A DNA stretch of 64,000 nt from a virus: the IMG/VR virus record IMGVR_UViG_3300009068_000023, one strand, 5' to 3'. Position numbers and translations under genes: made by a program. Every line of letters begins with the position of its first letter. Position 1 is the first letter of the stretch. Positions 4,484 to 49,321 of this stretch are shown here, piece after piece. Below the pieces are notes generated by a model, which saw nothing but the letters and a program-made list of their open reading frames with translations, searched no databases and had not been told where the DNA came from.

Positions 4484-5119
4484 ATGGGTAAGACTAGAGA
4501 CTTCTCAAGACTGCTATCTGAAAATCTAAACAATAACATCAAAATTGCTAATGCGCAGATGTATATTGGAGACGGTGGCGGCAATGCATACTTAAACTCA
4601 ACAAGTATTGCAGTATCATCAGTTAACGCAACTACGCTTACTGTTACATCCATCTATTCTAATGGATCACTAGGCACATCAGGCCAGGTATTAACATCTA
4701 ATGGTTCTGGTGCATACTGGTCAAGCTACACATCTCAGGCGTTAGGATTATTCAGCACAGTACAATTTAATGATGCTGGATACGCCAACGGCGCACAATA
4801 CGTGTCGTACGACAAACCTACCGGTGCATTCATAGTCGGTAGTAGCACCGCAAATACAAGAGTAGCTTTTAGCAATGTCAGTCTGAATGGTGACAGTGCA
4901 ACGCTATTTACTGGCAATGCAACCATTACTGGAACCTATAGTTCTAATGGTGTGGTGCTTTCTAATACAGCCTCATCTGGCAACGTAAACATTAATATGA
5001 GCGGTGTGCAAATAGGAAACTCAACAGTTAATTCTCAACTGACGTCTGCAGGGTTATCTGTTAACGGTGGTGCACCACTTAACATAACAACAGTATTAAC
5101 ATACAGCTTGGCTTTTTAA
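4484..5119 (+). CDS. Tail-fibre-like protein
   Basis: GQVLTSNGSGAYW and QFNDAG modules; C-terminal LTYSLAF. Confidence 0.65.
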   Translation: MGKTRDFSRLLSENLNNNIKIANAQMYIGDGGGNAYLNSTSIAVSSVNATTLTVTSIYSNGSLGTSGQVLTSNGSGAYWSSYTSQALGLFSTVQFNDAGYANGAQYVSYDKPTGAFIVGSSTANTRVAFSNVSLNGDSATLFTGNATITGTYSSNGVVLSNTASSGNVNINMSGVQIGNSTVNSQLTSAGLSVNGGAPLNITTVLTYSLAF

Positions 5120-5130
5120 CAGGTTAAAAA

Positions 5131-6000
5131 ATGGGCATAATTAGAAACTTAGCAAGTCGTGCATCAGACAGCTTAGTACTAGAAACTACTGTTGCAACAG
5201 AAGGCCAGACCTATTTCCCATACTCATCTACAAAGAGTAATTTCAATAATTTTTTAATCTATATTAACGGTGTATTGCAATCCAATACTGGTGACTATAC
5301 TGCAAACTCTCTAGGGGTTACTCTTACCCTTGCTGCCAACAGTAGCGATATTATTACCATAGGCATTATAAACAATGTTTTCTCCAAAGGAGAAAAGGGA
5401 GAGAAGGTTTCTAGTGCATTATACACAGATGCTAACAACACAATAGTTTTCACCAATTCAGACTCAACTGTTTTCCCGGTCACTGGTGTTAAAGGTCAAA
5501 AAGGCGATCAAGGCAGCAAAGGTGCAGATGGCAATGTCTATGCTGCTGGTGCAAAGGGAGATAAGGGTGACAAGGGTGAAGTAGGACCGACTGGTTCAAC
5601 TGGTAGTACTGGTGCAAAGGGCGATAAGGGTAGTCAGCTTTACGCCGCAACTTATATAGATGAATTAAATACCATAACATTTACAAATTCTGATCTAACT
5701 ACATTTTCAGCAGCAGGTATGAAAGGACAAAAAGGTGAGACAGGTAATACTGGTAATAATGGAGCAAAAGGAGATGCAGGGGCCATATCATACACAACTA
5801 ACATAGGGGATGGTACTAACACTTCTTTTACTATTAATCATAACCTAGCTAAAGCAGATGTGTCAGTGGTAGTTTTTGAGAATGCCACTAATAACCAAGT
5901 GTACCCTGATGTATCAGTTACAAACAATAATACGTGTGTAGTTAGTTTTGTTATAGCACCTACCTCAAGCCAATATAGAGTCAGAGTTCTAGGGTTCTAA
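5131..6000 (+). CDS. Collagen-like (Gly-X-Y) fibre protein
   Basis: Repeated KGEKG/KGDKG/KGQKG triplets; N-terminal IYINGVLQ module; C-terminal FTINHNL module. Confidence 0.75.
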   Translation: MGIIRNLASRASDSLVLETTVATEGQTYFPYSSTKSNFNNFLIYINGVLQSNTGDYTANSLGVTLTLAANSSDIITIGIINNVFSKGEKGEKVSSALYTDANNTIVFTNSDSTVFPVTGVKGQKGDQGSKGADGNVYAAGAKGDKGDKGEVGPTGSTGSTGAKGDKGSQLYAATYIDELNTITFTNSDLTTFSAAGMKGQKGETGNTGNNGAKGDAGAISYTTNIGDGTNTSFTINHNLAKADVSVVVFENATNNQVYPDVSVTNNNTCVVSFVIAPTSSQYRVRVLGF

Positions 6001-39055: not shown

Positions 39056-39591
39056 GCGGTGCTCAATCTACTGGTAAGACAACGTTATTAAATGCTTTGA
39101 GATCAGAACCAGTCTTTAAAGACTATGAAGTCTGTAACGAAGTAACTAGAAAGGTTGCGTCGTATGGTCTGCCTATTAACGAAGATGGTAATGATATTAC
39201 TCAAGAGCTGATTATGAATCAGCATATTGTTAATCTTGCTATGCATGATAATATGATTACAGATAGAACTGTGCTAGACGGTCTAGTATATTCAAAGTAT
39301 TTACGTGAGAATAGTAAGATTACAGCTGGTACGTTAAAGTATGTTGAGAGAATCTTTGATCGGATGATTCAAGGATATGATTTTATCTTTTACGTTGCAC
39401 CTGAGTTTGAGATTAAGAACGATGGCGTAAGGTCTATTAATACGTTCTTTAGAGACAGAGTAGTTAATATTTTTAATGAAGTTATCTCACAGAAAAATGT
39501 ACCGGTTTATAATGTAAAAGGAACTGTAAGAGAGAGAGTTCAGTTTGTACTTAATGTATTAGAAATTAATAAGGAAATTACTGATAAATGA
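39040..39591 (+). CDS. P-loop nucleotide kinase (NadR/AAA_28-like)
   Basis: GAQSTGKTT, ITDRTVLD, DGVR. Confidence 0.78.
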   Translation: MRIGISGAQSTGKTTLLNALRSEPVFKDYEVCNEVTRKVASYGLPINEDGNDITQELIMNQHIVNLAMHDNMITDRTVLDGLVYSKYLRENSKITAGTLKYVERIFDRMIQGYDFIFYVAPEFEIKNDGVRSINTFFRDRVVNIFNEVISQKNVPVYNVKGTVRERVQFVLNVLEINKEITDK

Positions 39592-40517
39592 GCGATAATC
39601 AAAAGACACTAAATGACCTAGTATCAGTACACCTAGGCAAGGCTGGGGATGGTTCCGTAGTTAAGCCCTATGTTACCCCTGATGACGTTGATCCGTCTTT
39701 GCTGGTAGCTGTGCCTAGACAGCTTAATCGTACAGAATATGGCCTTCAAGATGATAATCTACCCTTTGTTGGTAGTGATGCGTGGAATGCGTATGAGTTC
39801 TCTACTTTGCTTAAGAACGGATTTCCTGTATCAGGCTGGCTAAAGTTTGTCTATAATGATAATACGCCTAATATCGTAGAATCAAAGTCAGTTAAGTTGT
39901 ATCTTAATTCATACAATATGGCAAGGCTTATTGAGTCGGTTGAAGAGTTATGGATGATCGAAGACAAGATCGGTGAAGATCTAACTAAGGCTACTGGTGG
40001 TTATGTCTGCGCGCAGATCGCTATTAATAATGTAGATGGTGTACGACCCATTACTGGTGACTTCGTATCGCTAGAAAACTATTGCAATATCGATAAGATG
40101 ACTTTCGACAAGTATAATGAGAGTTCTGATATTCTAGAAGTAGTGCCTAGTATTGGCAGGTATGAGCGTTGGCGATCGCATTCGCTTCGTTCGAACTGTC
40201 GAGTAACTAATCAACCTGATTGGGGCGATGTTTATATTCATATTAAGGGTGAGAAGGCAGTTACTCCTGAATCTCTGTTGCAGTATATTGTAAGTATGCG
40301 AAAAGAGAATCATTTCCACGAAGAGATTTGTGAATGTATTTACAAGCGCCTGCACGACCTTCTTGCACCTGAAGAGCTGCTAGTTGCATGTCTATACACT
40401 CGCCGCGGTGGTATTGATATCAACCCTGTTCGAGCATCGAGTTGGGAAGTGTTAAATTTATATGCAGGTAACTTGACGGGTGAGTATAGCTTCTGCACTA
40501 AGACGATGAGACAATAA
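39588..40517 (+). CDS. queF: NADPH-dependent preQ0 reductase (two-domain QueF)
   Basis: VESKSVKLYLNS QueF motif, RSNCRVTNQPDWG, HFHEEICE, YTRRGG. Confidence 0.93.
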   Translation: MSDNQKTLNDLVSVHLGKAGDGSVVKPYVTPDDVDPSLLVAVPRQLNRTEYGLQDDNLPFVGSDAWNAYEFSTLLKNGFPVSGWLKFVYNDNTPNIVESKSVKLYLNSYNMARLIESVEELWMIEDKIGEDLTKATGGYVCAQIAINNVDGVRPITGDFVSLENYCNIDKMTFDKYNESSDILEVVPSIGRYERWRSHSLRSNCRVTNQPDWGDVYIHIKGEKAVTPESLLQYIVSMRKENHFHEEICECIYKRLHDLLAPEELLVACLYTRRGGIDINPVRASSWEVLNLYAGNLTGEYSFCTKTMRQ

Positions 40518-40717
40518 TGAGTTCACCAGATAAGAACGTAAATGAAATTTGTGACGAATTTATTGCTAGATCTTTACACGGATATAACAAATACGGCGTT
40601 ACAACAGAACGAACTGATTTAAATTTCGATCAATGGATTCAGCATCTTAAAGAAGAGCTTATGGATGCTGTAGTTTATATTCATAGAGTGCAAAAGGAAC
40701 GAAATGAAGTTAAGTGA
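40517..40717 (+). CDS. Small all-alpha NTP pyrophosphatase-like protein
   Basis: RSxxGxxKYG...WIQHLKEELMDAVVY acidic helix pattern. Confidence 0.55.
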   Translation: MSSPDKNVNEICDEFIARSLHGYNKYGVTTERTDLNFDQWIQHLKEELMDAVVYIHRVQKERNEVK

Positions 40718-41459
40718 TGCAATGGCAGGTCTGCCTGATACTGATAAGAATGTAGTTGCTGTACTATCTGGAGGACTTGATTCATCTGTAATGTTAATGC
40801 TTTTGATTGAGAAGTATGGTGCAGATAAGGTACATGCAGTTTCATATGATTATGGTCAGAAGCAATGGATGGAATTAAAGCGTGCCAGGAACTTAACAGA
40901 CAGCCTAGGTGTAGAGCATAAGATTTTTGAATTGGATATTCTAGGTAAGATCGCAAGAACGATGTCTGCCAACATTCAAGGGTCTGAGGTTGATATGCCT
41001 AAGATTAAGGATGTTCTAGGTGACCCGCAGCCGGTAACTTATGTACCGTTCAGAAATATGATTATGCTCTCGCTTACTCTTGCACTAGCAGAAGCGTCCG
41101 ATGCATCTCATATCTTTACAGGCTTACAAGTGCATGACGAATATGGTTACTGGGATACTACACAGCGTTTTGTAGATAGTATGAACGCAGTTGCAACACA
41201 GAACCGTAATCATAAGGTTGAGATTGTTGCACCGTTTAGTCAACTCAGCAAGTATCAAGAGATTGAGCTATGCAAGGAAATGGGCATGGTTAATTATCTA
41301 GAAAGCACACTTACTTGCTATAATCCAGATGGCAGCGGTAAGAGCTGCGGTGTATGTCCATCGTGTGCCGAACGCATTGCTAACTTTGCAAAAGCAGGAT
41401 TAAAGGATCCAATCGAATATAGTGTGCCTATTCCTTGGGATAAACTGATAGCTGCGTAA
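40704..41459 (+). CDS. queC: 7-cyano-7-deazaguanine synthase
   Basis: LSGGLDS, YGQK, TYVPFRN, TCY..CGVCPSCAER. Confidence 0.95.
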   Translation: MKLSDAMAGLPDTDKNVVAVLSGGLDSSVMLMLLIEKYGADKVHAVSYDYGQKQWMELKRARNLTDSLGVEHKIFELDILGKIARTMSANIQGSEVDMPKIKDVLGDPQPVTYVPFRNMIMLSLTLALAEASDASHIFTGLQVHDEYGYWDTTQRFVDSMNAVATQNRNHKVEIVAPFSQLSKYQEIELCKEMGMVNYLESTLTCYNPDGSGKSCGVCPSCAERIANFAKAGLKDPIEYSVPIPWDKLIAA

Positions 41460-46674: not shown

Positions 46675-46768
46675 CCTCCTGTAGTTTAATGGTAAAACAC
46701 CCGGCTTATACCCGGCATAGGCTCTAGATGGGGGCACGTTACAGGTTCGAGTCCTGTCGGGAGGACCA
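46675..46768 (+). tRNA. tRNA-Ile(UAU) with an atypical long variable arm
   Basis: CCTCCTG/CGGGAGG acceptor, CT-TAT-AC loop, TTCGAGT T-loop, encoded CCA. Confidence 0.8.
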
Positions 46769-46775
46769 TGTTATC

Positions 46776-46858
46776 GCCCCGGTGGTGGAATGGTAGACAC
46801 GCTGGTCTTAGAAGCCAGTGCCAAAAGCGTGAGAGTTCGAGTCTCTCCTGGGGCACCA
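46776..46858 (+). tRNA. tRNA-Leu(UAG)
   Basis: CTGGT-CTTAGAA-GCCAG; CCA end. Confidence 0.93.
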
Positions 46859-46872
46859 AATTGAGAAATAAT

Positions 46873-47064
46873 ATGAAAATTAATCCAGTTATTAACTTTG
46901 ACGTAAGCAACAAAGAACATCGCGAAGATTTTTATACGTTTACTAGGACTAAGTGCCTCGGTAAGCTTAAAAATAAATATACACTCGAAGGATGTTTTGG
47001 CGATATTGTTAGTATGATGACTGAAAAGGTAGCTAATTTTTATATTCAGAAAGAGTTCGAGTAA
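46873..47064 (+). CDS. Hypothetical protein (63 aa)
   Basis: ATG 46873 after GAGA, between tRNAs. Confidence 0.55.
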   Translation: MKINPVINFDVSNKEHREDFYTFTRTKCLGKLKNKYTLEGCFGDIVSMMTEKVANFYIQKEFE

Positions 47065-47068
47065 GTTT

Positions 47069-47158
47069 GGAAGTGTGGATGAGTGGTTTAAATCAACAGT
47101 CTTGAAAACTGTCGTGTCAGTAATGGCACCGTGAGTTCGAATCTCACCGCTTCCGCCA
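47069..47158 (+). tRNA. tRNA-Ser(UGA)
   Basis: ACAGT-CTTGAAA-ACTGT, long variable arm, GCCA end. Confidence 0.94.
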
Positions 47159-47161
47159 GAT

Positions 47162-47235
47162 CCCGGTGTAGTTTAATGGCAGAACCGCAGCCTCCAAATC
47201 TGCATGTGGGAGTTCGATTCTCTCCACCGGGTCCA
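47162..47235 (+). tRNA. tRNA-Trp(CCA)
   Basis: CCCGGTG/CACCGGG acceptor, CT-CCA-AA loop, TCCA end. Confidence 0.82.
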
Positions 47236-47237
47236 AG

Positions 47238-47265
47238 TTGACTTATATTCGATAAGTATTATAAT
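47238..47265 (+). promoter_or_regulatory. Sigma70-type promoter
   Basis: TTGACT-N16-TATAAT just upstream of tRNA-Met. Confidence 0.75.
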
Positions 47266-47273
47266 GTACGTAT

Positions 47274-47347
47274 AGCGGGATAGTGAAATGGCATCACACA
47301 GGTCTCATAAGCCTGAGTTCTTAGTTCGAATCTAGGTCCCGCAACCA
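47274..47347 (+). tRNA. tRNA-Met(CAU), possibly initiator-like
   Basis: CAGGT-CTCATAA-GCCTG; 1:72 A:A mismatch. Confidence 0.85.
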
Positions 47348-47352
47348 ATTAT

Positions 47353-47427
47353 TCCCTGGTAGCTCAGCGGTAGAGTAGATGACTGTTAATCATTTGGTCG
47401 CTGGTTCAATCCCAGCCCGGGGAGCCA
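47353..47427 (+). tRNA. tRNA-Asn(GUU)
   Basis: GATGA-CTGTTAA-TCATT; GCCA end. Confidence 0.93.
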
Positions 47428-47444
47428 AGTTAATAGGAGACATT

Positions 47445-47702
47445 ATGTCGGAGAAGGTAATTGTAAGCACATTCGAAGGCGCGCATAGTACTCGTACCGT
47501 ATATGAAGACGGTACTATTGAATTTATTACACACTATGATAAGCTTCTTAACGAAATTACTGAGCTAGGAGCACCTGTATTTTTGAATCCTGACGATAGC
47601 ATGCCTGAGCAAGTTGCATCAGAACCAGGAAGCGATAAGGTTGCAGAAGTAGTAGTTGAAAAGCCAAAGCTTCGTCGCGGTCGTAAGAAGAAAGAAGTTT
47701 AA
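47445..47702 (+). CDS. Hypothetical protein (85 aa) with a basic C-terminal tail
   Basis: AGGAG RBS and ATG 47445. Confidence 0.65.
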   Translation: MSEKVIVSTFEGAHSTRTVYEDGTIEFITHYDKLLNEITELGAPVFLNPDDSMPEQVASEPGSDKVAEVVVEKPKLRRGRKKKEV

Positions 47703-47706
47703 TATA

Positions 47707-47780
47707 GCCTCCATAGTTAAATGGTATAACACTTGATTTGTAATCATGGATTCTTGGTTCGATTCCGGGTGGGGGCACCA
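47707..47780 (+). tRNA. tRNA-Thr(UGU)
   Basis: TT-TGT-AA loop; ACCA end. Confidence 0.9.
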
Positions 47781-47784
47781 GTTT

Positions 47785-47860
47785 CTCTCTATGGCGTAAT
47801 CAGGTAGCGTACTGCGTTTGGGGCGCAGTGGTTTTGGTTCAAATCCAAATAGAGAGACCA
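47785..47860 (+). tRNA. tRNA-Pro(UGG)
   Basis: CTGCG-TTTGGGG-CGCAG; ACCA end. Confidence 0.92.
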
Positions 47861-47864
47861 AAAT

Positions 47865-47940
47865 AGGAGGTTAGCTCAGTTGGTAGAGCGTCACGCTTAC
47901 ACCGTGAATGTGATCGGTTCGAACCCGGTACCTCCTACCA
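47865..47940 (+). tRNA. tRNA-Val(UAC)
   Basis: TCACG-CTTACAC-CGTGA; ACCA end. Confidence 0.93.
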
Positions 47941-48375
47941 AACCCCCGTGTCTCCTTGGGTTTAGGAGAGGTGTGAGTTTGTGTTATGCCACAGCACTAT
48001 TGGCCAAATAGTGTCCAGAACTCTCAGGTGCCTAGTTCCACCATATGACTAGCGATTCTTAAAGATCGAATACTTTAAGCGTTCTCGTCGAAGCGTTATT
48101 AGACGTGGTCGGAGTAACCTCCCGGTCAAGTGGTTCCCTGGTAAGGAATGGCTTGGCACCTATAACAGTCCTTCTGATGAGTCTTTAGGAGACGATAACA
48201 GTAGTGCGTACAGCGAAATGGCGAGCCCTTCTTATAGGCCGTACCCAGAGTAGTCGTTACTGTCAAGGACCCGCCCCATACCTTTCGGTGTATTGGGTGC
48301 GAAGCGGAAGCTAGGGATGAAACGGTATACAATAGCGGTCTAGAACGCAACCTGTAACCTTAGTAGCGCAACCGA
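47941..48375 (+). ncRNA. Unassigned large structured non-coding RNA
   Basis: GC-elevated segment with no credible ORF and many helices, e.g. 47951-47969, 47994-48014, 48026-48032/48155-48161, 48058-48079. Boundaries approximate. Confidence 0.7.
48168..48270 (+). ncRNA. Type I hammerhead ribozyme (variant core), predicted cleavage after C48264
   Basis: Stem I GTCCTT/AAGGAC, CTGATGA, stem II GTCT/AGAC, GA(T)AA, stem III ACAGTAGTG/CGTTACTGT, GTC triplet. Confidence 0.8.
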
Positions 48376-48396
48376 ACTATCTATAAGGAGATCAAT

Positions 48397-48555
48397 ATGA
48401 GCGATGGCGGAAAAGGATCAAAACAAAGACCATTAGGTATTGATCTTATCACATTCGAAAACAACTGGGATAAAATTTTTGGTAATAAAGAACCAGAACA
48501 GGTTCTTACCCCAGAAGAAAAACTCAAAGAAGAAAAGCTTAAGCAGGACGATTAG
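48397..48555 (+). CDS. Small phage protein (MSDGGKGS..RP...FENNWDKIFG)
   Basis: AAGGAG RBS; 52 aa, below the ORF-track cutoff. Confidence 0.7.
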   Translation: MSDGGKGSKQRPLGIDLITFENNWDKIFGNKEPEQVLTPEEKLKEEKLKQDD

Positions 48556-48558
48556 TTG

Positions 48559-48587
48559 TTGCCCTTCATTCATAAGTAGACTATAAT
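48559..48587 (+). promoter_or_regulatory. Sigma70-type promoter
   Basis: TTGCCC-N17-TATAAT upstream of tRNA-Arg. Confidence 0.7.
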
Positions 48588-48594
48588 GAATCAT

Positions 48595-48671
<77 letters not shown>

Positions 48672-48676
48672 AAAAC

Positions 48677-48764
48677 GCCCGGGTGGTGAAATAGGTAGAC
48701 ACAGCAGACTTAAAATCTGCCGCTTTAAAACGGCGTACCGGTTCGATTCCGGTCCCGGGCACCA
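48677..48764 (+). tRNA. tRNA-Leu(UAA)
   Basis: GCAGA-CTTAAAA-TCTGC; long variable arm; ACCA end. Confidence 0.94.
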
Positions 48765-48777
48765 ACAAGGAGCAAGC

Positions 48778-49248
48778 ATGCTAAAAATAGATATTAATGA
48801 AGTAAAAGAGTTTATCGAAGCACAAGGCCCTAGCACAAAAATTTATATTGGTGGCGACTCTGAAAGATTCATTAATAACAATATTTGGTATGCTGATTAC
48901 ACACTCGCAATTGTAGTACACATCGACGGAAGACATGGTTGCAAGCTCTTTGGCGAGGTTCAAAGAGAACGCGATTATGATCAAAGCAAGAACCGCCCAA
49001 GAATGCGGCTAATGAATGAAGTATATAAAGTTGCAGAGCTGTATTTGAAACTACAAGAAGTTCTAGAAGACAGAGATGTTGAAGTTCATCTTGATATTAA
49101 TCCAAGCGATCTTCACGGTTCGAGTTGTATTATTAATGAAGCAGTAGGCTATATTAAGGGTATGTGTAACGTTACACCCCTTATTAAGCCTCAAGCGTTT
49201 GCAGCGAGCTATGCTGCAGATAGAATTAAAGAAGTGTTAGCTGCATAG
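48778..49248 (+). CDS. RNase H-like YkuK (DUF458) family protein
   Basis: IYIGGDS, NEV, VEVHLDI, KP.AFAASYAAD. Confidence 0.8.
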   Translation: MLKIDINEVKEFIEAQGPSTKIYIGGDSERFINNNIWYADYTLAIVVHIDGRHGCKLFGEVQRERDYDQSKNRPRMRLMNEVYKVAELYLKLQEVLEDRDVEVHLDINPSDLHGSSCIINEAVGYIKGMCNVTPLIKPQAFAASYAADRIKEVLAA

Positions 49249-49321
49249 CGGGATTCGTAAAATGGTATTACCCTAGCCTTCCAAGCTAGAGTCGCGGGTT
49301 CGATTCCCGCATCCCGCTCCA
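49248..49321 (+). tRNA. tRNA-Gly(UCC)
   Basis: CTAGC-CTTCCAA-GCTAG; TCCA end. Confidence 0.94.

Follow-up and report, generated by a model that had tools for sequence, protein, structure and literature searches.

The tRNA region of phage T4 encodes two small stable RNAs, rnaC and rnaD (species 1 and 2), which are released by processing of the tRNA transcript; we know of no association of either RNA with a ribozyme. Thousands of phage hammerhead ribozymes are known, few of which have an assigned job, and the context described here suggests one. The closest described case of a ribozyme within phage tRNA transcripts is that of the theta (HDV-like) ribozymes, which adjoin the tRNAs of gut phages, cut exactly at the tRNA 3' end and have been proposed to substitute for a host nuclease step (Kienbeck et al. 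2024, PMC10879173).

The present locus lies in an IMG/VR virus record (IMGVR_UViG_3300009068_000023), of which a stretch of 64,000 nucleotides, referred to here as the window, was analysed. Nearly all of its genes are on the + strand, and they include those for terminase, tail sheath, the clamp loader gp44/62, the translational repressor RegA and a gp43-type DNA polymerase. The closest cultured counterparts of this polymerase are those of Synechococcus myoviruses, at only 52% amino-acid identity, implying that the source is an uncultured T4-like phage. Between regA and gene 43 are 12 tRNA genes (46675-49321; Rfam, ARAGORN). Directly 3' of the CCA of one of them, tRNA-Val, begins a noncoding block of ~438 nt that extends to ~48377 and is followed in turn by a 52-aa ORF, a promoter-like site and tRNA-Arg. 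The block and its neighbours are as follows:

47865-47940, + strand: tRNA-Val(UAC), CCA encoded (ARAGORN; Rfam)
47941-48167, + strand: 5' domain, a structured RNA module of ~227 nt (alignments, covariation)
48168-48270, + strand: hammerhead ribozyme, itemised below
48271-48377, + strand: 3' domain, a conserved structured RNA found with the hammerhead in every lineage
48397-48555, + strand: 52-aa ORF (MSDGGKGS...) with RBS AAGGAG at 48385-90, an optional neighbour of the module
48559-48587, + strand: sigma-70-like promoter (TTGCCC, 17-nt spacer, TATAAT) before tRNA-Arg, a consensus match only

On that consensus match, the promoter-like site at 48559-48587 may mark the end of the transcription unit that contains the ribozyme. 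Farther along the array, between tRNA-Leu and tRNA-Gly, is a 156-aa gene (48778-49248) that belongs to Pfam PF04308 (RNaseH_like) and phrog_11311; its relatives are found in more than 300 viral contigs, commonly within tRNA arrays. Elsewhere in the window, GTP cyclohydrolase and QueC-like genes (39588-41459) suggest a 7-deazaguanine (queuosine-type) modification pathway in the phage.

The segment 48168-48270 was identified as a hammerhead by an earlier, sequence-only reading of this DNA. All of the elements that it described were found where it had placed them, apart from one coordinate of an upstream helix that is discussed later:

48168-48173, + strand: stem I, 5' strand GUCCUU, pairing with 48265-70; nearly invariant in the family
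48174-48180, + strand: core C3 to A9, CUGAUGA; variation across the family confined to N7 (U or C)
48181-48193, + strand: stem II, GUCU/AGAC (48181-84 with 48190-93), with loop UUAGG (48185-89)
48194-48197, + strand: core G12 A13 U13a A14, with T48196 as the inserted U
48198-48206, + strand: stem III, 5' strand ACAGTAGTG, A15.1 being 48198; five of nine pairs change on both sides across the family
48207-48254, + strand: stem III arm, an insert of 48 nt; homologous arm in contigs L163, L190, L191, L195 and L214
48255-48263, + strand: stem III, 3' strand CGTTACTGT, U16.1 being 48263; supported by covariation
48264, + strand: C17, with the predicted cut between 48264 and 48265
48265-48270, + strand: stem I, 3' strand AAGGAC, which would open the 3' cleavage product

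Compared with the hammerhead consensus, the 5' core strand C3 U4 G5 A6 N7 G8 A9 is present as CUGAUGA, A15.1 and U16.1 form a pair (A48198-U48263), and position 17, the last of the cleavage triplet GTC (48262-64), is a C and not a G. Three helices are paired directly beside the core with support from covariation, which is uninformative for stem I because that stem is invariant. Stem III has 9 bp, two of them G.U. Where the consensus has a contiguous G12 A13 A14 followed by A15.1, the window has GAUAA (48194-98), with a U after A13.

Relatives were sought with exact patterns from three parts of the block, two of which lie outside the hammerhead, so that the sample is unbiased toward retention of the ribozyme. 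Thirteen distinct sequences, falling into ~8 lineages, were recovered from viral and metagenome contigs by this search; 15 of the 23 metagenome pattern matches were unrelated integrase coding sequences and were discarded. All members of the family lie within tRNA arrays and on the tRNA strand. The lineages, with the sequence of the G12-A14 strand in each, are:

Lineage A (window, L001, L002/L194, L205): GAUAA; large stem III arm
Lineage B (L163/L200, L199): GAAA; large stem III arm
Lineage C (L190, L215): GUAA; large stem III arm
Lineage D (L191/L198): GAAA; large stem III arm
Lineage E (L195): GAAA; large stem III arm; stem I damaged
Lineage F (L166/L210): GAAA; short stem III hairpin; no 5' domain
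Lineage G (L189): GAAA; short stem III hairpin; no 5' domain
Lineage H (L214): GUAA; large stem III arm; different stem II

In the compact lineages F and G the hammerhead module comes directly after a tRNA. The ribozymes of L190 and L215 are identical while their distal 3' domains differ, which indicates mosaic exchange. Relatives of the block occur throughout on environmental contigs, and the carriers are uncultured T4-like freshwater phages. A blastn search of the block against 50,697 phage records gave no match, no cultured phage record among them carrying it, and a pattern scan of bacterial genome contigs gave none. With nhmmer, loci of T4-like relatives were searched, 80 carrying RegA and 80 carrying the PF04308 gene of the tRNA array; the block was found only in two contigs that were already known, implying that more distant relatives, at 79% protein identity, lack it.

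Several other features of these contigs may be recorded here. The GUAA hammerheads, otherwise intact and with covarying stems, are at L190:8405-8652 (-), L215:9332-9560 (-) and L214:2024-2255 (-). The tRNA-Ile(UAU) calls of the window (46675-46768), L001 (619-712) and L166 (1032-1123) are 92-94 nt in length, unusually long for class I, possibly through an insertion or intron. L166 has a further noncoding stretch of ~160 nt (197-354) between tRNA-Cys and tRNA-Asp, in an array of the same kind, and L086, a related T4-like phage contig, has a tmRNA inside its tRNA array (4739-5154; 124 bits for permuted tmRNA RF04321 and 104 bits for beta_tmRNA RF01850). Canonical type I hammerheads of the form GGUUAA-CUGAYGAG...GAAAC...GUC-UUAACC were seen just upstream of genes in the unrelated phage contigs L164, L165, L169, L171, L175, L177 and L168, the last of which has four copies, several in tandem.

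Could the motif in the window be a chance resemblance, arising in a coding region that escaped annotation or in a structured RNA of some other kind? Its folding energy is unremarkable against expectation (z = +0.5; second z-score +0.4), and a 74-aa ORF overlaps it on the minus strand, as this explanation would have it. A relaxed type I descriptor that allowed any one-base insertion after A13 nevertheless found one site only in the window (128 kb, both strands) and a single match in 20 shuffled windows; the indels are not multiples of three; and the motif is conserved, with covariation, over ~8 lineages, the relatives including canonical cores. Over 10 representatives of the family, 98.7% of the cells in the proposed pairing scheme hold a standard base pair; sliding the 3' strands out of register lowers this to 31-49%. 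Double-sided changes affect eight pairs, of which five belong to stem III, two to stem II and one to hairpin P1 of the 3' domain. None of 500 shuffles reached these values, and the same analysis on an 11-sequence alignment was likewise supportive. In L214, stem II is GACCC/GGGUC in place of GUCU/AGAC, two of its pairs differing in both bases. The family core varies, beyond the G12-A14 strand, only at N7 (U/C) and H17 (C/A, never G), the two core positions that are free in the published hammerhead consensus; the triplet is GUC in the window and GUA in four relatives.

Structure prediction and covariance models point the same way. RNAalifold, applied to five diverse full-length blocks, recovered stems I, II and III unprompted, and the Rfam Hammerhead_1 model is matched from its first to its last position by the two compact relatives, which score 30.7 and 27.8 bits (threshold 34; E = 6.6e-6 and 6.5e-5). 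The initial identification as a hammerhead is thereby upheld, the relatives keeping the motif with compensatory changes. We conclude from these alignments that the ribozymes are, at the level of the family, type I hammerheads, and that a chance origin is scarcely credible. It had also been predicted that consensus searches would miss the window copy, and this is the case: an Rfam scan of the window at gathering thresholds reports tRNAs only, and under permissive settings the best result is Hammerhead_3 at 17 bits (threshold 48.5, E = 1.2), in an alignment that treats the U of CGAuAAC as an insertion. Real hammerheads with a large stem III arm escape consensus and covariance-model scans.

The inserted U, T48196, is present in four independent assemblies from different samples (window, L001, L002/L194 and L205) and is therefore not a read error. 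Anatomy, conservation in the family and covariation are likewise direct observations. The variant core is not new but corresponds to the insertion that Perreault et al. 2011 (PMC3088659) call U13a. Their paper lists U13a among the natural variations tested, shows it in Figure 5 and expects the inserted base to be turned out of the core with minimal effect on the structure; its Figure S6 collects core-variant ribozymes that are active. Across the present family the G12-A14 strand is GAAA in five lineages, GAUAA in that of the window and GUAA in two. Insertion after A13 is rare, being confined to lineage A among 28 phage contigs that match a loose hammerhead pattern allowing it.

Within lineage A the ribozyme is better conserved than the rest of the block. 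Comparison of the window with L001 gives the ribozyme segment a single difference in 103 columns, a change from U.G to C-G in stem III, compared with 17 in 231 for the 5' domain and 18 in 114 for the 3' domain, implying that constraint has persisted since the U was inserted. This argues that the lineage A ribozyme is still under constraint, and the window copy with U13a is probably still active, perhaps more slowly. In the GUAA lineages a U replaces A13, a core mutation by the strict consensus, yet the stems covary, so that selection in part of the family may favour the fold over catalysis. The occurrence of GAAA, GAUAA and GUAA in otherwise near-identical ribozymes provides a natural test series for the tolerance of this strand.

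Is cleavage switched? The proposal that it is conformationally controlled was built on an upstream helix, AGGTGCC/GGCACCT, and on a pairing between loop II (UAGG) and CCUA in the 5' flank. GGCACCT is indeed at 48155-61, with AGGTGCC at 48026-32, one base earlier than had been given. This helix conflicts with a local helix, GTCAAGT 48125-31/GCTTGGC 48151-57, whose 3' strand GGCACCT overlaps; in a wider alignment three pairs of the local helix are changed on both sides, and G48156A in L001, L002 and L205 breaks AGGTGCC/GGCACCT while converting a U.G of the local helix to U-A. The sequence CCTA is present at 48159-62 and offers 4 bp to loop II, but this lies within chance (shuffled flank p = 0.16); the pairing has 4 bp in lineage A only, 3 bp in B and D, and is absent in C, F and G. 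The equivalent complement in L214 reaches 5 bp (p = 0.06), and no tertiary contact of loop II with stem I or its flank emerged from this comparison.

A broader version of the idea would have competing pairings gate cleavage, with the 5' domain or the stem III arm perhaps acting as sensor. When the ribozyme is folded together with just the 3' domain, the structure of lowest predicted energy is the hammerhead. The minimum-energy fold of the whole 438-nt block, as a counterpoint, uses a hairpin of GUCCUUCUGA (48168-77) with UUAGGAGAC (48185-93) instead of stems I and II, sequestering stem I and the core, and this hairpin gains a G-C pair in relatives with loop UCAGG. Attenuated core variants, too, would fit a regulated ribozyme, as would the loop II complements in the flanks of the window and L214. 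Against this, the compact relatives are wholly without a 5' domain and no ligand or aptamer family was matched in Rfam at E<=10, in addition to the broken upstream helix and the chance level of the flank complement. The conformational switch is thus not supported in the form first proposed, and we consider switched cleavage in general very unlikely.

What, then, are the enlarged stem III and the 5' domain for? The arm, found in lineages A-E and H, consists of a conserved internal loop (GAA opposite AGUA), in an arrangement that we take to be reminiscent of loop E, a UGG/CCA helix and a variable hairpin. In lineages F (L166) and G (L189) it is replaced by a hairpin of 7-11 bp, and it is therefore dispensable for the ribozyme as such. 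The 5' domain, seen in the window, L163, L191, L190 and L214, belongs to lineages with an enlarged stem III and is missing from the compact L166 and L189. Its first base invariably adjoins the CCA of a tRNA, or in L191 a tRNA remnant; covariation between lineages is seen in its hairpins (CUCCU/AGGAG versus CUUCC/GGAAG, for example), and a search of Rfam at E<=10 gave no family for it. Of the six arm-bearing lineages, five also have the 5' domain, and the compact forms have neither element; the exception, L195, has the arm without the 5' domain, the deletion there having also damaged stem I. This co-occurrence, over few independent events, is suggestive. In L190 and L215 a small ORF sits between the 5' domain and the ribozyme.

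The whole 438-nt block, as represented by the window and L163, has no match at E<=10 to the models for GOLLD, ROOL, tmRNA or RNase P RNA. Its identification as a tmRNA was considered and rejected, there being no tRNA-like domain and no ARAGORN or Rfam match. A long-range helix, CTCAGGT/ACCTGAG, is present in L001, L002 and L166, but it is absent from L163, and the window reads ACCTGTA instead; it is thus not conserved. A candidate helix that would close the block is predicted between CCC 47945-47 and GGG 48314-16.

Such a helix, together with the joint occurrence of arm and 5' domain and the presence of three versions of the G12-A14 strand in one family whose stems covary, could be taken to mean that the lineage A and GUAA copies no longer cleave usefully and that the junction has been kept as the hub of a ~440-nt RNA. 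We think this unlikely. The other catalytic nucleotides (among them G5, G8, G12 and a non-G at 17) are invariant, and a mere junction would need none of them to be so; U13a figures in PMC3088659 among the naturally occurring variations that were tested; in the compact relatives the core is perfect and a large RNA that it might scaffold is lacking; and in L190 and L215 the 5' domain is parted from the ribozyme by the small ORF. An intermediate possibility is that 5' domain, arm and 3' domain make up a ~440-nt RNA that is split in two by the hammerhead, with the U13a and A13U cores tuning or gating the split. If so, it would represent an uncatalogued kind of natural ribozyme RNA, regulated or in two pieces; we give this reading a rather low likelihood.

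The partner that never varies in its presence is the 3' domain, whose parts in the window are:

48272-48301, + strand: hairpin P1
48303-48312, + strand: hairpin P2
48313-48322, + strand: AGGGAUGAAA
thereafter, + strand: a variable distal part, then the conserved end AGUAGCGCAACCGA

Its consensus across the family is AAGGAC, P1, P2, AGGGAYGAAA, the distal part, interchangeable among three versions, and the conserved terminal sequence AGUAGCRYAACCGR. Covariation is seen in both P1 and P2, and no Rfam family was matched by the domain. Within the 3' domain an invariant element is AGGGAUGAAA, for which most relatives have AGGGACGAAA; by complementarity it might pair either with GUCCUU, the 5' strand of stem I, or with CCC 47945-47, the latter pairing closing the whole block. 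In the contigs of four lineages (L166, L190, L215 and L214) the next tRNA begins 4-16 nt past the end of the 3' domain.

The sequence-only reading held that cleavage provides a leader for the 52-aa ORF. The constant downstream partner of the hammerhead is, however, this structured RNA and not the ORF, which follows the module directly in only two of the ~8 lineages (window and L189), has a homologue behind a tRNA in L190/L215, and is absent from L001, L002, L205, L163 and L166, the first three of which are the closest relatives of the window. The homology covers the N-terminal 30 aa in L189 and L215/L190, with the motif MSDGGKGSxxRPxxxDxxTFxxNWDxIF (window 48397-48555; L189 8401-8583 (-); L215 8981-9229 (-)). 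In L189 and L215 the called frame extends into a tRNA gene, and the small ORF matches no Pfam or PHROG family.

The reading that we favour, and regard as probable, is that a genuine type I hammerhead is co-transcribed with the phage tRNAs and cuts the operon transcript so as to release the 3' domain RNA. The likely transcription unit would start at a promoter-like site (47238-65), take in tRNA-Met, -Asn, -Thr, -Pro and -Val and continue into the noncoding block. Stems I, II and III would fold around the core and position C48264, the 2'-OH of which would attack, cutting the chain between 48264 and 48265. The upstream piece would be a trailer on tRNA-Val, made up of the 5' domain and the ribozyme and ending in a 2',3'-cyclic phosphate; the downstream piece would carry a 5'-OH on AAGGAC, the opening of a conserved structured RNA ~110 nt long. 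Since the next tRNA bounds the 3' domain in relatives, RNase P would make its 3' end; with the ribozyme cutting on the 5' side, the two activities may together excise a small stable RNA. The hammerhead would then be a built-in processing site for a non-tRNA RNA within a tRNA operon. The predicted cut is at the first base of the conserved RNA and the other end would be set by a tRNA; in this respect the ribozyme would parallel RNase P. We infer cleavage, the chemistry of the ends and the stability of the product from established hammerhead chemistry, and the part given to RNase P and the rate of the U13a core are similarly predictions.

How does the locus compare with known systems? It is a new example of a known ribozyme class, carrying a rare core variant described in 2011, and what is modestly new is the fixed coupling to a conserved downstream RNA, with the natural GAAA/GAUAA/GUAA series. 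It shares with the type I hammerheads of bacteria and phages (RF00163; PMC3088659) the core, the three stems with an open stem I, the GUC/GUA cleavage site and the phage intergenic setting. It differs in that the window copy has a U after A13 and a 48-nt structured stem III arm, and in that the family lies within tRNA arrays and is always followed by one particular conserved RNA. The U within the GAAA strand, giving GAUAA, is as in the U13a variant in the account of core variants by Perreault et al. 2011 (PMC3088659).

As a large, ornate noncoding block beside phage tRNA genes, the locus resembles GOLLD and ROOL; unlike these, it is modular, with a dispensable 5' domain, and has no Rfam match at E<=10. 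In having a non-tRNA structured RNA within the tRNA cluster of a T4-type phage it resembles rnaC and rnaD, but shares no sequence similarity with them (the blastn search of the block over the 50,697 phage records found nothing). The nearest functional parallel is with the theta ribozymes, in which, too, a small self-cleaving ribozyme is built into phage tRNA transcripts (PMC10879173). The hammerhead is of a different class, however, and its predicted cut falls ~60 to 325 nt past the tRNA, at the first base of a non-tRNA RNA, in freshwater T4-like phages rather than those of the gut.
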